The notes: generated by a model not told the origin, from the letters alone. A stretch of 64,000 nucleotides of DNA from Spirochaetales bacterium (GCA_016930085.1 JAFGHO010000067.1:1041-65040), one strand, 5' to 3'. Shown: positions 7,929 through 60,372, numbered from the stretch's first letter. Program-made: numbers and translations.

Positions 7929-8001
7929 GGGCCGCTAGCTCAGTAGGCAGAGCAACGCCCTTTTAAGGCGTGGGTCGAAGGTTCGAATCCTTCGCGGCTC
8001 A
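7929..8001 (+). tRNA. tRNA-Lys (anticodon UUU)
   Basis: Cloverleaf readable by eye. Acceptor GGGCCGC/GCGGCTC with one G-U pair. D-arm AGCTCAGTAGGCAGAGC. Anticodon loop CUUUUAA. T-arm GGTTCGAATCC. Discriminator A. CCA not encoded. Confidence 0.9.
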
Positions 8002-27394: not shown

Positions 27395-29800
27395 TCAGTG
27401 GACAACATTCACCCCATACTGCTCGAGGAGGGGGATGATCTCGGAACCGGAATGATCACTCAGCGGATTATCGCTGACATTGACCGTTTCGAGCCGCGGA
27501 AGGTCGATGAGTACGGATAAATCCGTGATACGGTTTGACCGGATATCGAGATTCCACAAGTACGGAAAGCCGCTTAACGGCGAGATATCGGTGATGTTGT
27601 TGCCGCCGAGATCGCACATAGAGAGGTTTCTGTTTCCGGCGAGCGGCGTTATATCCGTTATCCCGTTTCCCGCGGCGTGGAAAAAACTCAGGGACGGCCA
27701 ATTCGCAAGCGGCGAAAGATCGGTAATAGTGTTGTTATTTATCGAAAGCGAATCGAGGCTTTCGATTCCGGAGAGGAATGAAATATCCGTCAGGCCGCAC
27801 TTGTCAAGCTTGAGATCGATGAGTTTGGGCATTTCCAGAAGCGGACTGAAATCGGTGATATCGTTGCCGGAAATATCGAGTCTGCCGAGATTTGTCATCG
27901 CCAGAAGGGGGCTTATATCCGTCACATTATTACCGCCGATATAAAAACCGGTATAACTGTGAAGCAGCTTGTTCAAAACACTCAGGTCACTGATCTCGTT
28001 GTCGTTGAGGTACATATTGGTGAAATAGGTACCCTCGAGAAAATCGAGGTTCGTGATATTGTTTGATTCGAGGTGCAGTGCCCAGATCATATAAAGGTTC
28101 GAGTCCGAAAATGATTCATAGTCCTCTATGGGGACGGCATTGAGGGAAAGGATATCGAGGTCGATGCCCACCCTGCGAAGCGGACGGACACGAGTGATCG
28201 GATTCCGGTCGAGATACAGTTCGCAGAGATACGGGAGGTCGCTGTTGTTGAAAGGACTCAGGTCGCTGATATTGTTTTCCTCGAGGTGGAGGTAAAAGAT
28301 ATTGCCCGTCATGATGGGGGTAATATCCGAGATATTGTTTTCCCTGAATTCCATCTGTGCTATTCCGTCAAGGTCCGATAAGGGCTCCAGACTCGTTATA
28401 TCGTTCCCGTTCATGCAAAGCCTGTCCAGTTCCGAAAGGTGCCTGAGCGGTTCGAGATCCGAGATATTGTTGTCATTCATATAAAGATTCACCAGTGAAG
28501 CCGGTCCTTCAATACCGGACAGGTCGCCTATCATGTTGTTGTTCGCTCTCAGGCTGGTGATAAGGGAGAGTCCGGCAAGGGGGGTAATGTCCGTGATCCG
28601 GTTGTCACTCATCTCGAGTATTTTCAAAGAGACGAGTCCCGCAAGGGCGTCGATGTGCGTGATGCGGTTGTTGTTCATGTACAGTTCCGTAAGGGAGGTG
28701 CAGCCCGAAAGGGGGCCGATATCGGCAATAGTGTTGTTGTTGACGGACAACTCGCTCAGGGAGACAAGTCCGGCGAGTGCGGTAATATCCGATATAGCAT
28801 TATTATCGAGATCAAGGGATGTGAGGGCCGTTTTCCCGGCAAGAGCGGAAATATCGGTGAGTTCATTATATTGCAGTTCACATCCTGTCAGTCCGTACAT
28901 GTTTCTGAGACTTTCAATATTCCGGATAGTATTGTTCGATAGAGAAAGCGAGGACAGGTTCACGAGTGGGGCAAGCGGCGTTATATCGGCGATACGGTTA
29001 TAACCTACATCGAGAGAGGCAAGCGATGTCAGGCCGGAGAGCGGCGATAGATTGGCAATCCGGTTGTGGCCGGCGTAAAGTCTGGTAAGGTGCGATAATC
29101 CCGCAAGGGGACCGAGGTCCGTGACAGAATTACCGCCGCAGGACAGATATTCAAGATTCACAAGATTCTTTATTGGAAGTAAATCGGAAATGGCGTTGTT
29201 TCCGATATAAAGGGTTTTGAGATTGAGGAGTCCGGCAAGGGGTGAAATGTCGGTAACGGCATTGCCTGATACGGCGATGTACGTCAGATTCGCAAGCGAA
29301 GAAAGCGGGCCCAGATCGGCGATAGTGCTGCCGGTGAATACGATCTCTTCGAGGGCGGGAAGGTGTTCAATCCCGCTTATATCCGAAATATTCGGTTGAC
29401 GCTGCCGGAGGGAGGTGATGTTTTCGACTTCAAAGGCGTAAATATGGCCGGTGGACTTGCTGATGGTGAAGCGGATGAGGCTTTCGAAGGCCGGATCGGG
29501 AAAGGTGAGTATTTCCTGCTTCCCGCAATATCCCGGGAATTCGCTTATACTCCCGATATAATATCGAGCCACCAAAAGGGCGTCCACAATGTCGGCCTTT
29601 CCGTCATCGTTTACATCCATGTTTTCAGGGGCAATATTGGGAGGGTTTGTTCCCACATAATACTGCGCTATCAGAAGGGAATCGACAATATCGATACGCC
29701 CGTCATTATTCGCATCGCCGCAGGTCTGCCCGAAGGCGGTCACTCCCGGAAAAACGATTATAATGAAGAGAATCAAAAGGGAAACAACGCCTGGTTTCAT
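27395..29800 (-). CDS. Secreted protein: N-terminal type-I dockerin + ~25 leucine-rich repeats (internalin-like)
   Basis: Signal peptide. Duplicated Ca-binding dockerin segments (GDANNDGRIDIVDSLLIAQYYVG / MDVNDDGKADIVDALLVARYYIG). Then LxxLxxLxLxxNxIxDISPL repeats throughout. Confidence 0.8.
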   Translation of the reverse strand: MKPGVVSLLILFIIIVFPGVTAFGQTCGDANNDGRIDIVDSLLIAQYYVGTNPPNIAPENMDVNDDGKADIVDALLVARYYIGSISEFPGYCGKQEILTFPDPAFESLIRFTISKSTGHIYAFEVENITSLRQRQPNISDISGIEHLPALEEIVFTGSTIADLGPLSSLANLTYIAVSGNAVTDISPLAGLLNLKTLYIGNNAISDLLPIKNLVNLEYLSCGGNSVTDLGPLAGLSHLTRLYAGHNRIANLSPLSGLTSLASLDVGYNRIADITPLAPLVNLSSLSLSNNTIRNIESLRNMYGLTGCELQYNELTDISALAGKTALTSLDLDNNAISDITALAGLVSLSELSVNNNTIADIGPLSGCTSLTELYMNNNRITHIDALAGLVSLKILEMSDNRITDITPLAGLSLITSLRANNNMIGDLSGIEGPASLVNLYMNDNNISDLEPLRHLSELDRLCMNGNDITSLEPLSDLDGIAQMEFRENNISDITPIMTGNIFYLHLEENNISDLSPFNNSDLPYLCELYLDRNPITRVRPLRRVGIDLDILSLNAVPIEDYESFSDSNLYMIWALHLESNNITNLDFLEGTYFTNMYLNDNEISDLSVLNKLLHSYTGFYIGGNNVTDISPLLAMTNLGRLDISGNDITDFSPLLEMPKLIDLKLDKCGLTDISFLSGIESLDSLSINNNTITDLSPLANWPSLSFFHAAGNGITDITPLAGNRNLSMCDLGGNNITDISPLSGFPYLWNLDIRSNRITDLSVLIDLPRLETVNVSDNPLSDHSGSEIIPLLEQYGVNVVH

Positions 29801-29982
29801 TTTTTTTTCCTTTTTTGATATATATTCGAACTGTATTTCAGTTGTCCGTTTATTTTTGCATCAATGAAAGGTAAACGTATCATTGTATAACTCATCCCGT
29901 AAAAAGAAGGACGTTAACCTGTCATTCGAGATATTATATACCATATTGTATCAGCCGTCAACAAAATGTTATTACAGAATCG

Positions 29983-30002
29983 TTTTCGACCTCCGTCCCC
30001 GT
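29983..30002. repeat. Direct repeat copy 2 (TTTTCGACCTCCGTCCCCGT)
   Basis: See copy 1. Lies at the left edge of the AT-rich Fic island. Confidence 0.5.
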
Positions 30003-30147
30003 TATCTCAACCTACATCCCCCTCCCGGATGAGAATAACATACTTGATCATACCCGTTAAATGTAACATACTCCTTATTGAAAGAGCCGGAATCATTCAA
30101 TTTTGGGACGCGCGTGGGTATAATGGGAAGGTGCATGTCTGCATGGA

Positions 30148-30215
30148 AAGTAAAATATAAAATCCTATATTTTACTTTAAGGCCGTAAAGTAAAATATGG
30201 AATACTATATTTTAT
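30148..30215 (+). promoter_or_regulatory. Two tandem palindromic operator-like sites (AAGTAAAATAT-N8-ATATTTTA) upstream of or overlapping the fic start
   Basis: Site 1 at 30148-30177 and site 2 at 30188-30215, 40-bp register. Each is an inverted repeat AAAATAT...ATATTTT. Embedded in an AT-rich leader. Confidence 0.45.
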
Positions 30216-30228
30216 GTTGGGGAAAGAA

Positions 30229-31359
30229 ATGGATACAAAGGATTTCATGGCCGGTATTTATAAAAAGGCAGATAATTATCGGTATTTTATGCCTGAAAAA
30301 ATCAACCGTGCATTTATCTGGACAGATACTATGCTAAACGAAATCTTGGAAAAAGCATCGTTAAAACTAGGCGAACTGAACTCATTTTCACGACTTGTGC
30401 CGGATACCGATATGTTTATCCTTATGTATATTGTCAAGGAAGCGGTTATTTCAAGCCGTATTGAAGGAACACGGACTAATATCGAGGAAGCCTTTGCCGA
30501 AGAAAGTGATATCGATCCTGAAAAGAGGGACGACTGGAAGGAAGTGAAAAATTATGTCAACGCGATGAACCAGGCAATTAATGACCTTGAGAAGCTGCCT
30601 TTATCAAACCGGCTTATAAGAAAAACTCATGAGATATTATTGTCCGGAAGCAGGGGCGAAACAAAAACACCGGGAGAATTTCGTAAATCCCAGAACTGGA
30701 TCGGCGGGGTAAGTCTCGGCGATGCCGTTTTTATTCCTCCGTCACATATTGAATTGCCTGAATTATTATCGGATTTCGAGAAATTTCTGCATAACAGCGA
30801 TATCCATGTTCCACATCTGGTAAAGATAGCAATTGCCCATTATCAATTCGAGACTATACATCCATTCCTCGATGGTAACGGAAGGATTGGACGGCTTCTT
30901 ATAACACTTTACCTTGTCGCTAACGGAATCCTGGAGAAGCCTCTGTTGTATCTTTCGGATTTTTTCAATAAAAATAAAACATTGTATTATGACAATTTGA
31001 CTTTTGTACGCACCAAAAACGATCTCAATCAATGGATCAGATTTTTTTTGACGGGCGTTATCGATACGGCGGAAAACGGCGTTGCGACACTAAGGAAAAT
31101 AATTGCACTAAAAGAAACGATCGAGCATGATCATATCATGAAGATGGGAAAACGGCTTCAAACGGGACTTGCCCTGTTGCATGGAATATTAAGACAACCT
31201 CTGGTTTCGGCAAAAGACGTACAGGAAATGACACGTCTTTCTCCAAAGGCCGCAAACGATATTATAGATATTTTTATAGAAAAAAATATACTTGTCGAGA
31301 CCACAGGGTATAGACGAAATCGAAGTTATTTGTTCGAGTCATATATCAGGATGTTTTGA
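30229..31359 (+). CDS. fic: Fic/Doc family protein (AMPylator-type) with C-terminal winged-helix
   Basis: Canonical Fic motif HPFLDGNGRIGR. Alternative ATG at 30214 lies inside operator site 2. Confidence 0.85.
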   Translation: MDTKDFMAGIYKKADNYRYFMPEKINRAFIWTDTMLNEILEKASLKLGELNSFSRLVPDTDMFILMYIVKEAVISSRIEGTRTNIEEAFAEESDIDPEKRDDWKEVKNYVNAMNQAINDLEKLPLSNRLIRKTHEILLSGSRGETKTPGEFRKSQNWIGGVSLGDAVFIPPSHIELPELLSDFEKFLHNSDIHVPHLVKIAIAHYQFETIHPFLDGNGRIGRLLITLYLVANGILEKPLLYLSDFFNKNKTLYYDNLTFVRTKNDLNQWIRFFLTGVIDTAENGVATLRKIIALKETIEHDHIMKMGKRLQTGLALLHGILRQPLVSAKDVQEMTRLSPKAANDIIDIFIEKNILVETTGYRRNRSYLFESYIRMF

Positions 31360-31411
31360 CTTTGAGAATATTTTTATATGCTACTTCTTTATTAACCCGG
31401 GAGACTTGTAT

Positions 31412-32584
31412 TTGAGTAGTGAAAGTAAACAAATAAGCAATCCTTTTTCAACAGGTGGAGGTGGCATATATTTCGAAACACGCGTACAGTCGCTTTTTGT
31501 TGCGCTTATGCTTACGGGAGGATTTGCTCCATGTTTACCATGCTGCCCGATTACCAGGATTAAACTTCAGGGAAGATTTGCCGGATTCAATACTGATGAT
31601 ATGATCGTTTATATGAGTGATACATCGGGTAAGGAACGAAAACTTCTTGGACAGATCAAACATACAATAAGTATAACCGAAAGCGAAGAGGTTTTTAGAG
31701 AAGTAATACAGGCCGCATGGAATGATTATAGTAATCCGGATATTTTTACAAAAAATGAAGATGTTTTTGCACTTATTACCGGCCCTCTCAGTGTGACTGA
31801 TATCAATGATACAAGAACGATACTTGAATGGGCGAGGGCTTCAGGAAATGCAGATGAGTTTTTTACCAAAGTGAAACTGGCAAGATTTAGCAGTAAGCAA
31901 AAGAAAAAAAAGCTGGATGTATTCAAGCTCAATCTAAAGAAAGCTAACAAAGAAAAAGATATACCCAATGAAATTATTTTCGATTTTCTTAAACATTTCA
32001 ATCTTATCGGTTACGACCTTGACATCAAGTCCGGTGTCACATTGTCACTATTACATTCTATAATTGGTCAGTATTCACAGGATAATGCAGAATCAATATG
32101 GACAAGAATTGTCGATGAGGTTCAATCGGCAAACAAAAATGCAGGCACAATAACAATGGATATGCTTCCGGTGGAATTACAAAACATTTTTGGCAAGAAA
32201 GAAATCAATACAATACCTTCTGATTTACCAAAACCAGAGATTGAATCTATTTCTCCAGACTGGACACACCATAAATATGCTGTTCCATTATCAATCTCAG
32301 TTATTGCAGGTGCATGGAACGAGCAAAATCAAATGGATTGCGAGATTGTCGGCAAACTTGCAGGTGAAAATTACGAATCATGGATAGTCAAATTAAGAGA
32401 AATACTTCATGAATCGGAGAATCCTCTTGATTTTCGAAACGGACGCTGGAATATAAAAAACAGAATAAATCTGTGGGATATGCTGGGCTCGAGGATTTTT
32501 GGCAATAATCTGGATACATTCAAGGAATGTGCAATCAAGGTATTAGCGGAATATGACCCTCAATTTGATTTAAAACCAGAATAA
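31412..32584 (+). CDS. Hypothetical protein (no recognisable domain), island gene 2
   Basis: Long AT-rich ORF. Probable TTG start at 31412 with RBS GGGAGA 7 nt upstream; the ORF track extends it to a TTG at 31292 overlapping fic. No signal peptide or TM segment. Confidence 0.5.
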   Translation: MSSESKQISNPFSTGGGGIYFETRVQSLFVALMLTGGFAPCLPCCPITRIKLQGRFAGFNTDDMIVYMSDTSGKERKLLGQIKHTISITESEEVFREVIQAAWNDYSNPDIFTKNEDVFALITGPLSVTDINDTRTILEWARASGNADEFFTKVKLARFSSKQKKKKLDVFKLNLKKANKEKDIPNEIIFDFLKHFNLIGYDLDIKSGVTLSLLHSIIGQYSQDNAESIWTRIVDEVQSANKNAGTITMDMLPVELQNIFGKKEINTIPSDLPKPEIESISPDWTHHKYAVPLSISVIAGAWNEQNQMDCEIVGKLAGENYESWIVKLREILHESENPLDFRNGRWNIKNRINLWDMLGSRIFGNNLDTFKECAIKVLAEYDPQFDLKPE

Positions 32585-32614
32585 AGATTTGCAGCAGGTA
32601 TCCATGGAAAGGTT

Positions 32615-34981
32615 TTGAGTTATTCACGTGATATACGTAAAGGTATGGCAGAAGGGCTTGCCTTGATGGGCACAAGATCAAAATCGTTGATTAATTGTAC
32701 GGAACAAAAACCGGAAGCTGTTGCTGTTCTTACGATAAGAGAAATTTTTGATAAAGCCGGTTGGAAACGCTGGGCAAGTCTGAACGATTTGCTTCCAATA
32801 TTAGCCGAAGCATCGCCCGTAGAATTCCTTACTGCTGTGGAGCAGGCATTACAACAAAATGAATGCCCTTTTGATGAATTATTCGCACAGGAAGGAAAAG
32901 GATTATTGGGAAGTAATTATCTGTCCGGATTATGGTGGGCTTTGGAAGCTCTTTCATGGGATGAGGAATATATAACTCGAACATGTGTCATTCTTGGAGA
33001 ACTTGCATCTCATGATCCTGGCGGGAATTGGGCCAATCGACCAATTAATTCCTTAACTTCGATTTTATTGCCATGGCATCCTCAAACAAAAGCAAATAGT
33101 GATACAAGGATCGCCGCTTTCAAGGCTGTCCTTTTAGAATTTCCCGGAATTGCCTGGAAACTGGTCATTAATTTACTTCCTGAACAACATCAAACTTCAT
33201 CCAGTACATATAAACCACAATGGCGTAATCCAATACCTGGAGATTGGAAACCCAAAGTAACAAACAAGGAATATCAGGATCAAGTTGAAAAATATGCAGA
33301 TATAGCTGTTTATATGGCTGTTACAGATCCTTCCAGGATTAAGGATTTGGTTGAAAATCTTGATAATCTGCCTGAATCATCCTTTGACAGGATATTGAGA
33401 CATATTTCTTCAAAACAGGTAACATCGCTTCCTGAAAATGAACGGTTGCCCATTTGGATAAGTTTGAAACAATGTGCCAGAAAGCACCGGCGGTATGCAG
33501 ACACACAATGGGCTCTGGATGCTGTTTCAGTATCAAAAATAGAAGCGGCTGCCAAAAAGATTGCACCTGAAAGCCCTGAGGGGCGTTACAGAGAACTTTT
33601 TATAAATAGAAGCAATTATCTTTATGAAAGTAATAGTGATATACAAGAACAGAATGATAAATTGAATGAAAAACGACAAAAAGCTGTACAGGAAATAATG
33701 GATAAAGATGGAATTAATGGGATTATAGCTTTTACACATACTGTTGAATCTGCTGAGCAGGTAGGATGGGCACTTGGCGCAATAGCAAATGACGAAATCG
33801 ATACTTATTTGTTGCCTGAATTTTTAACGGATAAGACAGAAAAAATCAAACGCTTCATAAGCATGTATATATTAAATCGATATTGTATATATAGATGGGA
33901 ATGGGTTGATGGGTTGAATCGCTCTCACTGGACCATGGATCATAATTGTCAGTTCCTCATGTGTTTGCCATTTGTCATCGATACATGGCATAGAGTAACA
34001 AAATGGCTAAACGAAGATGAAAATCAATACTGGAAAAAAGTTAATGTTAATCCATATGATTCAGATGATGACCTTGTTTTCGCAATCGATAAACTTATTG
34101 AGGCAGGAAGACCTCAAAAAGCAATTGATTGCCTGTGTTACAGAAAATACAAGAAATTGCCACTAGATAGGGATCGTACAATGAAAGCTTTATTTAATGC
34201 AATATCTTCTGAAGAATCATCGGCTTATATAGATTCTTTAAATGCTATAGAACTTATTAAAGAACTTCAAAACGATCCTGAAGCCGATCCAAACGATCTT
34301 TTTAAAATCGAATGGGCATATTTACCCTTACTCGATTCTCATCACGATGCCGAACCAAAGTTTCTTGAGAAACAACTCGCTTCAAACCCTGGGTTTTTCT
34401 GCGAATTGATTCAACTTGTGTTTAAATCCAGCAAAGAAGAAAAAAATGACATTAATATAAATGAAGGAAGCAAAAATATTGCGGAGAATACATGGAGACT
34501 TCTTCATAATTGGAAAAGGCCGCCTGGAATGAATGAAAATGGAAATTTCGAATCAAAATATTTTAAGTCATGGCTTGAAATTGTAAAAGAAAAGTGCAGG
34601 GAATCCGGACATTATGAAGTAGCTATGAGGAAGATAGGTGAGGTGCTTGTATATTGTCCTGCCGATAAAGAGGGACTCTGGATTGATAAAGATATTGCAA
34701 GAATGCTGAATGAAAAGGATGCCGATCCTATGAGAAGGGGATTCAATACAGAAGTATACAATTCGAGAGGTTTTCATGCAGTTGATCCAAAAGGTAAACA
34801 GGAAAGGGAAATAGCTGGTAAATGGAGGGAAAAAGCATATGCTGTCGATAATGAAGGTTTCGCACGATTTGCCGCATCATTACGCGAGTTGGCCGGTTCT
34901 TTTGAACGTGAAGCAAGGATGTTTAAAAATATATTTATTGATGAATTCGGATTGGTAACTGGTGAGGAAGATACAGACTAA
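32615..34981 (+). CDS. Hypothetical 788-aa protein (no recognisable domain), island gene 3
   Basis: Uninterrupted 2.37-kb ORF, AT-rich, predicted cytoplasmic and largely alpha-helical. Start uncertain (TTG 32615 or ATG 32645). Confidence 0.55.
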   Translation: MSYSRDIRKGMAEGLALMGTRSKSLINCTEQKPEAVAVLTIREIFDKAGWKRWASLNDLLPILAEASPVEFLTAVEQALQQNECPFDELFAQEGKGLLGSNYLSGLWWALEALSWDEEYITRTCVILGELASHDPGGNWANRPINSLTSILLPWHPQTKANSDTRIAAFKAVLLEFPGIAWKLVINLLPEQHQTSSSTYKPQWRNPIPGDWKPKVTNKEYQDQVEKYADIAVYMAVTDPSRIKDLVENLDNLPESSFDRILRHISSKQVTSLPENERLPIWISLKQCARKHRRYADTQWALDAVSVSKIEAAAKKIAPESPEGRYRELFINRSNYLYESNSDIQEQNDKLNEKRQKAVQEIMDKDGINGIIAFTHTVESAEQVGWALGAIANDEIDTYLLPEFLTDKTEKIKRFISMYILNRYCIYRWEWVDGLNRSHWTMDHNCQFLMCLPFVIDTWHRVTKWLNEDENQYWKKVNVNPYDSDDDLVFAIDKLIEAGRPQKAIDCLCYRKYKKLPLDRDRTMKALFNAISSEESSAYIDSLNAIELIKELQNDPEADPNDLFKIEWAYLPLLDSHHDAEPKFLEKQLASNPGFFCELIQLVFKSSKEEKNDININEGSKNIAENTWRLLHNWKRPPGMNENGNFESKYFKSWLEIVKEKCRESGHYEVAMRKIGEVLVYCPADKEGLWIDKDIARMLNEKDADPMRRGFNTEVYNSRGFHAVDPKGKQEREIAGKWREKAYAVDNEGFARFAASLRELAGSFEREARMFKNIFIDEFGLVTGEEDTD

Positions 34982-35203
34982 ATCTAAACTTTTACATGTG
35001 AAACGAATATTATATTTATCTATCCATTATCAGAAACCAATCTTCCCTGATACTCCGGCCGTATAAAAATCCTTCTTGTAATACCCGCAGAATAATAAAA
35101 AAGGCGGCAAGGAAGCCTCCTTGGGGCCGTCTTTCCGGCGTCCCCGTGCTTCCCGCACCGCCCTTTCAGATGAAAAGGAATCAAGGCCGCAAGGCGGCCC
35201 CGA

Positions 35204-37336
35204 TTATTGATGTTCGCCCGCAAGCCGCATGGCGGCTGTAACCAGCGATATAAACTCCTCCCGGTAGCCGTATTCGTCCTTTCCGCGTGAGCCCCCGGCA
35301 AGATCGAGCACCTGCTCATAGGACGCATCGGCCTTGTGTTCCGAGTTTCTGAGGAGCAGTCCCCATTCGGCGACCGCCGAGGCGAACCGGAAATTGTCGG
35401 AGGAGGCCGTTAGCGGGATATCCTCATCGCGAACGGGGATTTCTATCAGGATGCTTGTATCCCCTTTCGGTTTTTTGTAGCGGAACTTCATTGTCATGAT
35501 TTCGTCCGTATTGTATGCGCCGTCGTTTATCCTCGTTTCCTGGTATTTCAGCTCCGTCCCGCCGCCGTCTCCAATCGAAGGAACGATTTCATAGAGGGCG
35601 GTAACGCTGTGTCCTGCGCCGAGTTCGCCCGCGTCCTTTGTGTCGTCGGCAAAATCTTCCTTCGCCATCACGCGGTTTTCGTATCCGATCAAGCGGTACG
35701 AATCGACGCGTGCGGGATTGAACTCGATCTGGATTTTCACGTCTTTCGCGATGGTAAGCAGGGTGCTTCCCATCTCCTCGACGAGGACCTTTTTCGCTTC
35801 GGAGACCGTGTCGATATAGGCGTAATTGCCGTTTCCCTTGTCGGCGAGTTTTTCCATCTTCGAATCCTTGTAGTTACCCATACCGAAGCCCAGAATCGTG
35901 AGGAAGATGCCCTTGTTTCGTTTTTCCTCGATCAGGCGGACCAGTTCCGCGTCGCTTGACACACCGACATTGAAATCGCCGTCCGTCGCGAGGATCACCC
36001 TGTTGTTTCCCTGCGGATTATAGTACTTCTCCGCCGTTTCATAGGCGAGCGAGATTCCCGCCCCGCCCGCGGTCGAACCGCCCGCCGAAAGACGTTCCAG
36101 CGCCCCGATGATCTTGCCCTTATCCGTTCCCGCTGTCGGGGGAAGGACAAGACCGGCCGCCGAGGCGTACACCGCGATAGCGACCCTGTCTTCCTGCCGC
36201 AGCTGATCGACGAGCAGGGAGAAGGCCTTTTTGAGAAGCGGCAGCTTGTTCTGGCTTTCCATCGACCCGGAAGTGTCGATGAGAAAAACGAGGTTGTTCG
36301 GCGGGAGCTGTGTCTTCGGGATCTCCTTCCCCTGTATGCCGATATGGATGAGCCGGTGCGGGGTGTTCCACGGGCATTCGGATATTTCGGTATAAAAGGC
36401 AAAGGGGTGCTCGCCCGAGGGCTGGGGATATTCGTAGGTAAAGTAGTTGACGAGTTCCTCGATCCTGACCGCATCCGGATAGGGAAGCCTGCCGTCGGTG
36501 ATAAACCGCCGCACGTTCGCATAGGAGGCGGTATCCACGTCGATGGAAAAGGTGGAGAGGGGGTTGTCGACCGCTTTCAGAAATCTGTTCTCGTAAATTC
36601 TGTCGTATTCCTCGGTATTCCAATCGGCTTCATCACCGCTTGAAAGAAGTTTGATCCTTTCGTCCGTCTTCCTTTCTTCTTCCGCGGATGCTTCGTATAG
36701 TTCCATGTCCATTCCCGATGTTTCGTCGATCATTGAATAAGCGAATATCCCCTTCTCGCCGGGTGAGGGCGGATTTTCTTCCTGGGCGGCGGTTTTCTTC
36801 TTTTCATCGGGTTTGTATTCCTTCTCTTCCTTTTTTACCGCGCTCCCCGAGCTTTCCGTTTCTTTCGATGCCGTCCTTCCCCGTTCGCCCGCTTCCGCCG
36901 GGTTTTCACTCTCCTGTTTATCCGCTTTCGGCTCCGGTATATCTTCGTCGAACGCATCGGGCACGATTCCTTCCGTGCCGGGTATCATCCCTTCAGGCGG
37001 CCCGGTGTATGTATTTATCGTGTCTTCGCTTTTCATGGTCTGCCAGAGGGGGATAAAAACCGCAAAACCGAAAACGGCGCAGAAAACCGCCGCTGCCGCG
37101 GTCACCGCGATTTTCATACCGTGTCTGCCCAGCCATTCGGTTACCGGATGGGATTTGTCCGTGAACTCTCTGAGAAGTCTTTTTTTGAGTGTTTTTCTGA
37201 ATTCCTCATCCATTGTGACATCCGGTTTCGAGGAAACGAGTTTTTCGATTATTTTCTTCAATTCGGTCTCCTTTTCCTTCAATGACGGATCGACCTCATA
37301 AAGGTCGTTCAAGATTGCATGTATTGTTTCATTCAT
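35204..37336 (-). CDS. Anti-sigma factor (N-terminal zinc-finger-less anti-sigma domain + TM) fused to periplasmic vWA domain, YfbK-like
   Basis: RBS AGGAGG. N-terminal cytoplasmic helix bundle, one TM (VTAAAAVFCAVFGFAVFIPLW), acidic linker. vWF_A N-domain (FSIDVDTASYANVRRFI...VRIEELVNYF). vWA MIDAS (DTSGSM ... ATDG). Start ATG overlaps the sigma-factor stop (ATGA). Confidence 0.75.
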   Translation of the reverse strand: MNETIHAILNDLYEVDPSLKEKETELKKIIEKLVSSKPDVTMDEEFRKTLKKRLLREFTDKSHPVTEWLGRHGMKIAVTAAAAVFCAVFGFAVFIPLWQTMKSEDTINTYTGPPEGMIPGTEGIVPDAFDEDIPEPKADKQESENPAEAGERGRTASKETESSGSAVKKEEKEYKPDEKKKTAAQEENPPSPGEKGIFAYSMIDETSGMDMELYEASAEEERKTDERIKLLSSGDEADWNTEEYDRIYENRFLKAVDNPLSTFSIDVDTASYANVRRFITDGRLPYPDAVRIEELVNYFTYEYPQPSGEHPFAFYTEISECPWNTPHRLIHIGIQGKEIPKTQLPPNNLVFLIDTSGSMESQNKLPLLKKAFSLLVDQLRQEDRVAIAVYASAAGLVLPPTAGTDKGKIIGALERLSAGGSTAGGAGISLAYETAEKYYNPQGNNRVILATDGDFNVGVSSDAELVRLIEEKRNKGIFLTILGFGMGNYKDSKMEKLADKGNGNYAYIDTVSEAKKVLVEEMGSTLLTIAKDVKIQIEFNPARVDSYRLIGYENRVMAKEDFADDTKDAGELGAGHSVTALYEIVPSIGDGGGTELKYQETRINDGAYNTDEIMTMKFRYKKPKGDTSILIEIPVRDEDIPLTASSDNFRFASAVAEWGLLLRNSEHKADASYEQVLDLAGGSRGKDEYGYREEFISLVTAAMRLAGEHQ

Positions 37337-58704: not shown

Positions 58705-60372
58705 ATGCCAAAGTATCAGCCATTTCCGAAAATCGACCTCGAGAACAGAATGTGGCCGGACGCGGCCATTACCAAAGCCCCGATCTGGTGCAGTGTCGAC
58801 CTTCGTGACGGGAACCAGGCACTTGCCACGCCAATGAATATAGAAGAGAAATTAAGAATGTTTCAGCTCCTCGTCGATGTCGGCTTCAAGGAGATCGAGG
58901 TCGGATTCCCGTCGGCGTCGCAGATCGATTTCGATTTTTTACGCCGTCTGATCGACGGTCACCTGATCCCGGATGATGTCTGGATCCAGGTGCTCACCCA
59001 GTCGCGCGAACACCTGATCCGCCGGACGATCGAAGGATTGCAGGGCGCGGGGAAGGTGATCGTTCATCTCTACAATTCGACATCGCCGCTTCAGCGGAAG
59101 GTGACCTTCAACAAGACAAAGGAAGAAATCAAGGAGATAGCGGCCACCGGAACGAAACTCGTCAAATCCCTCGTCCCGGAATTGAAAGGCGCGGAAGTGC
59201 GGTTCGAGTATTCACCCGAGAGTTTTTCGGACACGGAAACCGACTACGCCCTCGAAGTATGCGAGGCGGTGATGGACGTCTGGGAGCCGACTGAAAAAAA
59301 CAGGATCATCCTCAACCTGCCGGACACGGTGCAATGGACGACCCCGAACATCCACGCGGACCAGGTCGAATGGTTCATCCGCAACATGAAACACCGGGAA
59401 AAGGCGATCATCAGCCTGCATACCCACAACGACCGGGGAACAGGCGTGGCTGCTACCGAACTCGCCCTGCTCGCCGGCGCGGAGCGCGTCGAGGGGACGC
59501 TTTTCGGAAACGGCGAACGGACGGGAAACCTCGACATTATCGTCGTCGCGTTGAACATGTTCGCAAACGGTGTCGATCCGGGACTCGATTTCGGCAATAT
59601 CCCGGCGATCCGCAAGGTGTACGAGGAATGCACGAAAATGACCGTTCACGAACGCCACCCCTATTCCGGCGACCTCGTGTTCACCGCGTTTTCCGGTTCG
59701 CACCAGGACGCCATCAAGAAGGGGATGGACATGAGGGCCGGGAACAAGGACAAGGACTCGAAGTGGGAGGTTCCCTACCTGCCCATCGATCCGCAGGATA
59801 TCGGGCGGACCTACCAGGCGATCATCAGGATCAACAGCCAGAGCGGCAAGGGCGGGGTCGCCTACATCATGTCGAGGGATTTCGGCATCGAACTCCCCAA
59901 GGCGATGCACCCCGAAATCGGGGCCGCGGTCAACCGGCTCGCCGACGAATCGGGACGCGAGCTTTCGCCGCAGGAGATTTACGGCGTGTTCAAAAAGGAA
60001 TACCTGATGCGGGAAAAACCCCTCCGGCTCGTCACCCTTCACACCATCGAGAACGGAGCCGCCGAACACGGCGTCTCGTGCCATGCGGAAGTGGAGTATA
60101 ACGGTGAGGTGTGCGAAATAAAGGGACGGGGAAACGGTCCCATCGACGCCTTCGTCCACGCCATGCAGCAGCTGGGGATCGAAAAGTTCTCGCTCACCGA
60201 TTTTCACGAGCACGCGATTTCAAGGGGATCGGAAGCGGAGGCGGTCGCCTTCGTCCAGATCGAACGGCCCAAAGGGAGCGCCTTCTGGGGCGCGGGGGTC
60301 GACACGAACATCAGCTACGCGGGACTCAAGGCCCTCCTGAGCGCGTATAACAGGTCGGTTGCCGAGGGCTGA
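58705..60372 (+). CDS. leuA: 2-isopropylmalate synthase (long, LeuA type 2)
   Basis: RBS AGGAGG. Motifs WCSVDLRDGNQAL, HTHNDRGTGVA, LeuA dimerisation/regulatory C-terminal domain. Confidence 0.9.
   Translation: MPKYQPFPKIDLENRMWPDAAITKAPIWCSVDLRDGNQALATPMNIEEKLRMFQLLVDVGFKEIEVGFPSASQIDFDFLRRLIDGHLIPDDVWIQVLTQSREHLIRRTIEGLQGAGKVIVHLYNSTSPLQRKVTFNKTKEEIKEIAATGTKLVKSLVPELKGAEVRFEYSPESFSDTETDYALEVCEAVMDVWEPTEKNRIILNLPDTVQWTTPNIHADQVEWFIRNMKHREKAIISLHTHNDRGTGVAATELALLAGAERVEGTLFGNGERTGNLDIIVVALNMFANGVDPGLDFGNIPAIRKVYEECTKMTVHERHPYSGDLVFTAFSGSHQDAIKKGMDMRAGNKDKDSKWEVPYLPIDPQDIGRTYQAIIRINSQSGKGGVAYIMSRDFGIELPKAMHPEIGAAVNRLADESGRELSPQEIYGVFKKEYLMREKPLRLVTLHTIENGAAEHGVSCHAEVEYNGEVCEIKGRGNGPIDAFVHAMQQLGIEKFSLTDFHEHAISRGSEAEAVAFVQIERPKGSAFWGAGVDTNISYAGLKALLSAYNRSVAEG

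Follow-up and report, generated by a model that had tools for sequence, protein, structure and literature searches.

Two unrelated defence-type genes, a SoFic-type fic and an interrupted gene for a putative Cap4-type nuclease, in an AT-rich islet of a Spirochaetales genome

SoFic (Shewanella oneidensis SO_4266) and EcSofic make up a single-gene Fic anti-phage system, and AMPylation activity, toxicity and phage defence have been reported for EcSofic (PMC12249575). The promoter of a related Fic protein, CccR of Yersinia pseudotuberculosis, contains inverted repeats to which the protein binds via its C-terminal helix-turn-helix (HTH) and through which it represses that promoter, and the two HTHs of the CccR dimer lie 70 Å apart (PMC9755527). 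Among nuclease systems, Avs3 and Avs7 are antiviral sensors that combine a STAND NTPase with a Cap4 nuclease as effector, and their Cap4 domains are activated by tetramerisation (PMC13581612). Here we analysed a 64,000-nucleotide stretch of DNA from a Spirochaetales bacterium (GCA_016930085.1, JAFGHO010000067.1:1041-65040), hereafter called the window, and found that an AT-rich islet within it holds two unrelated defence-type genes and not one three-gene module. An earlier note on this DNA had described three co-directional genes in the islet, namely fic followed by genes for a ~390-aa and a 788-aa protein that were proposed as partners, targets or regulators of Fic. The defence-type content suggested at that time is supported. 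The explanation that we prefer, and hold to be rather probable, is that of a composite, horizontally acquired defence islet made of two independent single-gene modules, fic and a broken large gene.

The islet spans 29801-35020 (no strand assigned) and is bordered on the left by an LRR-dockerin gene (minus strand, 5' end at 29800) and on the right by a vWA gene (minus strand, 3' end at 35204). Windowed GC is 0.34-0.42 over approximately 29750-35000 and 0.49-0.59 in both flanks, and the overall GC of the islet is 0.381 compared with 0.502 in the remaining window. No 5.4-kb stretch of the window has a lower GC than the islet, the stretches outside it having a mean of 0.500 and a standard deviation of 0.027. 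The GC3 is 0.40 for fic and 0.31 and 0.28 for the ~390-aa and 788-aa ORFs, as against 0.51-0.73 for the other long ORFs of the window, leaving aside one overlapping shadow ORF (59334-60101, GC3 0.39). GC and GC3 therefore bear out the sharp drop in base composition that had been noticed between the LRR-dockerin and vWA genes. As also stated before, ORF, Pfam and tRNA searches found no integrase, transposase or tRNA in the islet, the sole tRNA of the window being a tRNA-Lys (7929-8001) outside it. Flanking direct repeats of the islet were looked for and none was found. The islet is foreign DNA, an origin supported by its composition, which is not uniform with that of the flanks.

The fic gene (30229-31359, plus strand) encodes a 376-aa protein that, judged from its sequence, is a predicted AMPylase of known kind, a SoFic-type class II Fic. 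The presence of a fic gene in the islet was confirmed by the catalytic motif HPFLDGNGRIGR, which fits HxFx(D/E)GNGRxxR, and by Pfam matches to Fic_N (2.8e-25) and Fic (4.1e-19, above the gathering score for Fic). The inhibitory helix motif (S/T)xxxE(G/N) is present as SSRIEG in the Fic_N region of the same polypeptide. The PADLOC comparison that had been proposed as a check gave an end-to-end match of the protein to the SoFic profile (5.1e-116, profile positions 4-357 of 361, C-terminal domain included). SoFic chains of the PDB matched at ~1e-35, and chain 9vjc_A aligns with residues 47-362. The protein scores 172.7 bits against the NCBIfam SoFic equivalog NF046030, below its cutoff of 550, and is consequently a SoFic relative and not an orthologue or equivalog. 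Two start codons can be considered for fic. The alignment of 80 homologues begins at residue 1 of the product initiated at ATG 30229, and this codon is more likely to be the true start than ATG 30214, which would give a protein of 381 aa.

Upstream of fic we found the two 28-bp palindromes in 40-bp register that the earlier note had pointed out. Operator 1 (30147-30178, no strand assigned) is a perfect palindrome, AAAGTAAAATATA-n6-TATATTTTACTTT, with its 28-nt site at 30147-30174 and arms of 13 nt. Operator 2 (30187-30218, likewise without strand) is an imperfect copy located 40 nt downstream, with its 28-nt site at 30187-30214 and two mismatches in the right half-site, and it ends 11 nt upstream of the likely fic start 30229. 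The second site had been said to overlap a candidate start codon, and it does touch ATG 30214, but the real start is more likely the codon downstream. The window contains three exact copies of the 12-mer half-site, all of them at the operators, and the fourth copy there carries the two mismatches; the four copies are spaced by 20 nt. Palindromes of the AAAGTAAA...TTTACTTT kind were present upstream of 28 of the 76 fic homologues compared with 2 of the 372 control segments, mostly as a pair, and in homologous loci with two sites the spacing was 40-41 nt in 16 cases. The half-site sequence varies between lineages, yet it is identical in both sites of one locus. This indicates that paired palindromes are a conserved trait of the Fic family loci. 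By analogy with CccR, they are putative self-repression operators to which this Fic may bind. A candidate -10 box of fic (TATAAT, 30119-30124, plus strand) was assigned by reading the sequence, and a consensus promoter scan proposes instead TGGAAA-16-TATATT (30144-30171), an element overlapping operator 1. Shuffled sequence has at least as many promoter-like sites as this region, so that the assignment of the -10 box is weak.

The ~390-aa and 788-aa ORFs downstream of fic share one frame and are parted by a single TAA (32582-32584, plus strand). When joined, they align end to end with single homologues of ~1,182 aa, with a coverage of 98-100% and an identity of 50-55%. The two ORFs are therefore halves of one large gene of 1,189 codons (31412-34981, plus strand), which leaves two genes in the islet where three had been counted. 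The TAA is codon 391, a position at which 41 of 61 homologous loci have GAA and at least 90% of 16 aligned sequences have Glu. Both TTG start codons had been described as uncertain: TTG 31412 is now supported because it coincides with the N-termini of the homologues, while TTG 32615, lying within the same gene, is not a start codon. The copy in the window deviates from the consensus in 44 of 421 highly conserved columns, compared with 14 ± 8 for the others, which may reflect decay, but it is also the most divergent of the set.

In an AF2 model of the large protein (mean pLDDT 80.7) a Cap4-like nuclease is followed by an alpha-solenoid. The N-terminal domain (aa 1-262, 31412-32197, plus strand) has a restriction-endonuclease core of order alpha-beta-beta-beta-alpha-beta, and fold searches found it similar in structure to Cap4 and to the Avs3 nuclease. 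The model thus points to a Cap4/Avs3-type PD-(D/E)xK nuclease fold with putative activity. Pfam returned no family at E <= 1 for the N-terminal half, the Cap4 (DUF4297) model included, and the nuclease assignment is consequently a structural one. The putative catalytic residues, all on the plus strand, are E22 (31475-31477), D63 (31598-31600), Q81 (31652-31654) and K83 (31658-31660). E22, D63 and K83 show little or no variation among homologues, and Q81 replaces the canonical D/E before xK. The middle region (aa 290-386, 32279-32569, plus strand) has the DSSP order H-E-H-H-E-E in the model and by this order may resemble a winged helix. The C-terminal part (aa 406-1180, 32627-34951, plus strand) is modelled as a HEAT/ARM-like alpha-solenoid of about 780-900 aa, presumed to be a sensor or regulatory domain. 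One polypeptide thus joins an N-terminal effector to a C-terminal repeat region of sensor-like aspect. None of the Pfam, NCBIfam and full-length PADLOC models matches the large protein; the earlier statement that the two ORFs show no assignable motif therefore stands at the sequence level, but the fold reveals the Cap4-type nuclease. Walker A (GxxxxGK[ST]) is absent from the large protein, and there is no Pfam match to AAA, NACHT or nSTAND. Conservation of the solenoid is high (~70% mean column identity), which is unusual for a phage sensor; a conserved cellular ligand would also fit.

The family of the large protein comprises more than 1,500 homologues, counted as clusters at 90% identity, and relatives occur in 360 species belonging to bacterial phyla, archaea and CPR. 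In E. coli the gene was found in 8 of 5,426 complete genomes, an intact member being WP_044867624.1. The gene lies at the tail-fibre end of an E. coli prophage, and it is also present on five IMG/VR contigs. The ~262-aa nuclease domain heads proteins of ~1,700 aa of the STAND NTPase type as well (262 aa aligned, 56% identity), which, like its match to the retron type VIII partner, speaks for an effector role. The gene is frequently located within type I R-M operons or prophages. In 13-14 of 80 loci HsdS is encoded directly upstream, and the other immediate neighbours (raw counts) include HsdR, Eco57I/MmeI-type methylases, PIN, RhuM, YhcG, AlbA_2 and BrxL. Approximately 80% of the family loci have no adjacent R-M genes, and no conserved partner gene was found next to them. 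The large gene thus shows a patchy distribution among phyla, known defence genes nearby and a location on mobile elements. In all, this appears to be a widespread, unnamed and apparently undescribed family of single-protein nucleases, for which fold, domain sharing and neighbourhood suggest an anti-phage role.

That the islet could be a Fic cassette, with the ~390-aa and 788-aa proteins as Fic targets, regulators or co-components, would agree with the tight packing of the co-directional ORFs (52 nt from the fic stop to TTG 31412), with the low GC common to all three and with the occasional presence of Fic relatives near homologues of the large gene. However, the two ORFs are one gene, and a Fic relative lies within 8 kb of the large gene in only 1 of 80 loci (tblastn), while the large gene is found near close Fic relatives in 0 of 80. 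A Fic-like C-terminal domain was detected by Pfam scan in 2 of 127 immediate-neighbour ORFs, and in locus L001 the Fic gene sits between hsdM and hsdS as separate cargo. The GC3 of fic (0.40) is also higher than that of the large gene (0.28-0.31). Conservation of the trio had been set beforehand as a check, and the homologues are found apart from Fic: the large-gene family is not linked to Fic. The three-gene module was consequently rejected as very improbable. We give a larger, though still minor, probability to the reading in which the TAA reflects no real inactivation but an assembly or base-call error, a minority allele, or a tolerated split whose fragments reassemble, the protein remaining active. 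The TAA comes from a MAG, it is the single lesion of a copy that retains its catalytic residues as well as each of the 64 invariant positions, and in the model it falls within aa 387-405, which link the middle region to the solenoid and are not helical. On the other hand, other genes of the window also terminate at TAA, and no convincing ribosome-binding site precedes TTG 32615 or ATG 32645. A functional split is further opposed by the 80 of 86 homologous loci that are intact single ORFs, four others being broken at other positions. Unless the MAG has a wrong base here or represents a minority allele, the change from GAA to TAA at codon 391 most likely leaves the gene inactive, and the window copy is most likely a dead or mis-sequenced member of its family.

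Two further alternatives concern how each module works, and we regard both as improbable. The large protein could be a PrrC-like guard of type I R-M, its solenoid docking on the Hsd complex and its nuclease firing when a phage anti-restriction protein disables Hsd. The loci with HsdS upstream, in which HsdM lies further upstream and HsdR downstream, place the gene in the slot of prrC-like genes, but hsd genes are missing from the surroundings of most loci, the window and the copy in the E. coli prophage among them, and the same slot of type I operons holds unrelated cargo (RhuM, Fic, YhcG, AlbA_2). Slightly less probable still, the palindromes could act as two hairpins in the 5'-UTR that control translation or stability. 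They lie downstream of the candidate -10 box and, if transcribed, fold into two clean RNA hairpins (-28.1 kcal/mol, z = -5.1). Yet the sharing of one half-site by both sites of a locus and the kept register of 40-41 nt are explained by a common DNA-binding protein, and hairpins need neither. Moreover, the related Fic-HTH protein CccR has been shown to bind such repeats, and an Rfam search matched no family.

Under the preferred reading of two independent modules, Fic would be a toxic AMPylase giving phage defence by abortive infection, as SoFic-type class II enzymes do. A Fic dimer would bind each palindrome via its C-terminal HTH domains and repress its own promoter; with half-sites ~20 bp apart and palindromes 40 bp apart, the sites would lie on one side of the DNA helix. 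In intact members of the large-protein family the solenoid would keep the nuclease inactive until a phage-derived trigger binds, and release or oligomerisation would then lead to non-specific DNA cleavage and abort the infection, a scheme analogous to Avs3/Avs7 and DSR2, minus the STAND ATPase. We propose more tentatively, at somewhat less than even chances, a joint reading in which the ~1,180-aa family is an undescribed NTPase-free single-protein anti-phage receptor that would switch on its DNase upon direct sensing of a conserved phage component. Its modules would have been exchanged, the nuclease with STAND/Avs proteins and with partners of retron type VIII, the solenoid with the phage-encoded protein family phrog_18693, and the window copy would have been inactivated recently.

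For the window itself, a misleading trail is closed: the supposed three-gene Fic module does not exist, and a single broken gene accounts for both "orphan" proteins. The family unites a well-studied defence nuclease with a big helical sensor-like domain and has no ATPase switch. Should it defend against phage, it would show how a Cap4 nuclease is kept under control with neither a STAND NTPase nor cyclic nucleotides nor partner proteins. The copy in the E. coli prophage allows a direct test of this. The conserved double operator suggests that tight self-repression, so far shown for CccR only, is a general check on toxic SoFic-type AMPylases.

The closest functional analogy to the large protein is DSR2, which has a SIR2 effector, a HEAT-like C-terminal sensor and no NTPase. 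In both, an N-terminal effector precedes a large helical-repeat sensor; the effector is a nuclease here and a SIR2 NADase in DSR2, and no homology between the two is known. Avs3 and Avs7 share the Cap4 nuclease but rely on a STAND NTPase that the large protein lacks, and activation here therefore cannot use nucleotide-driven oligomerisation. The ~1,700-aa STAND relatives carry a Walker A/STAND NTPase, and the repeat region of the large protein shows no sequence similarity to them. Cap4 of CBASS, LmuA of Lamassu and HamA of Hachiman act with SAVED, LmuB/C and HamB, respectively, none of which is present or conserved beside the large gene. Upx (the single-gene system of Gao 2020; PDB 9wuf, 1,212 aa) is of similar size and has a restriction-endonuclease-fold domain, but resembles the large protein neither in sequence nor in whole fold. 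The accessory protein of retron type VIII (PADLOC PDLC02918, labelled 'DUF626' serine esterase in Mestre 2020) is homologous to the first ~170 residues (E 1.7e-7), and the rest of the large protein is unrelated to it; no reverse transcriptase or ncRNA lies near the large gene in the islet, which consists of fic and the large gene only. On the Fic side, the likeness to SoFic/EcSofic is the end-to-end PADLOC match, and the 52-nt gap downstream of fic leaves no room for a small antitoxin ORF like AS1. CccR has SARIEG as the equivalent of SSRIEG and shares inverted repeats in its own promoter region, footprinted for CccR and known here from the sequence. The layout is different: for CccR a single pair of 10-nt repeats is separated by 26 nt, whereas the islet has two ~32-bp palindromes in a 40-bp register.

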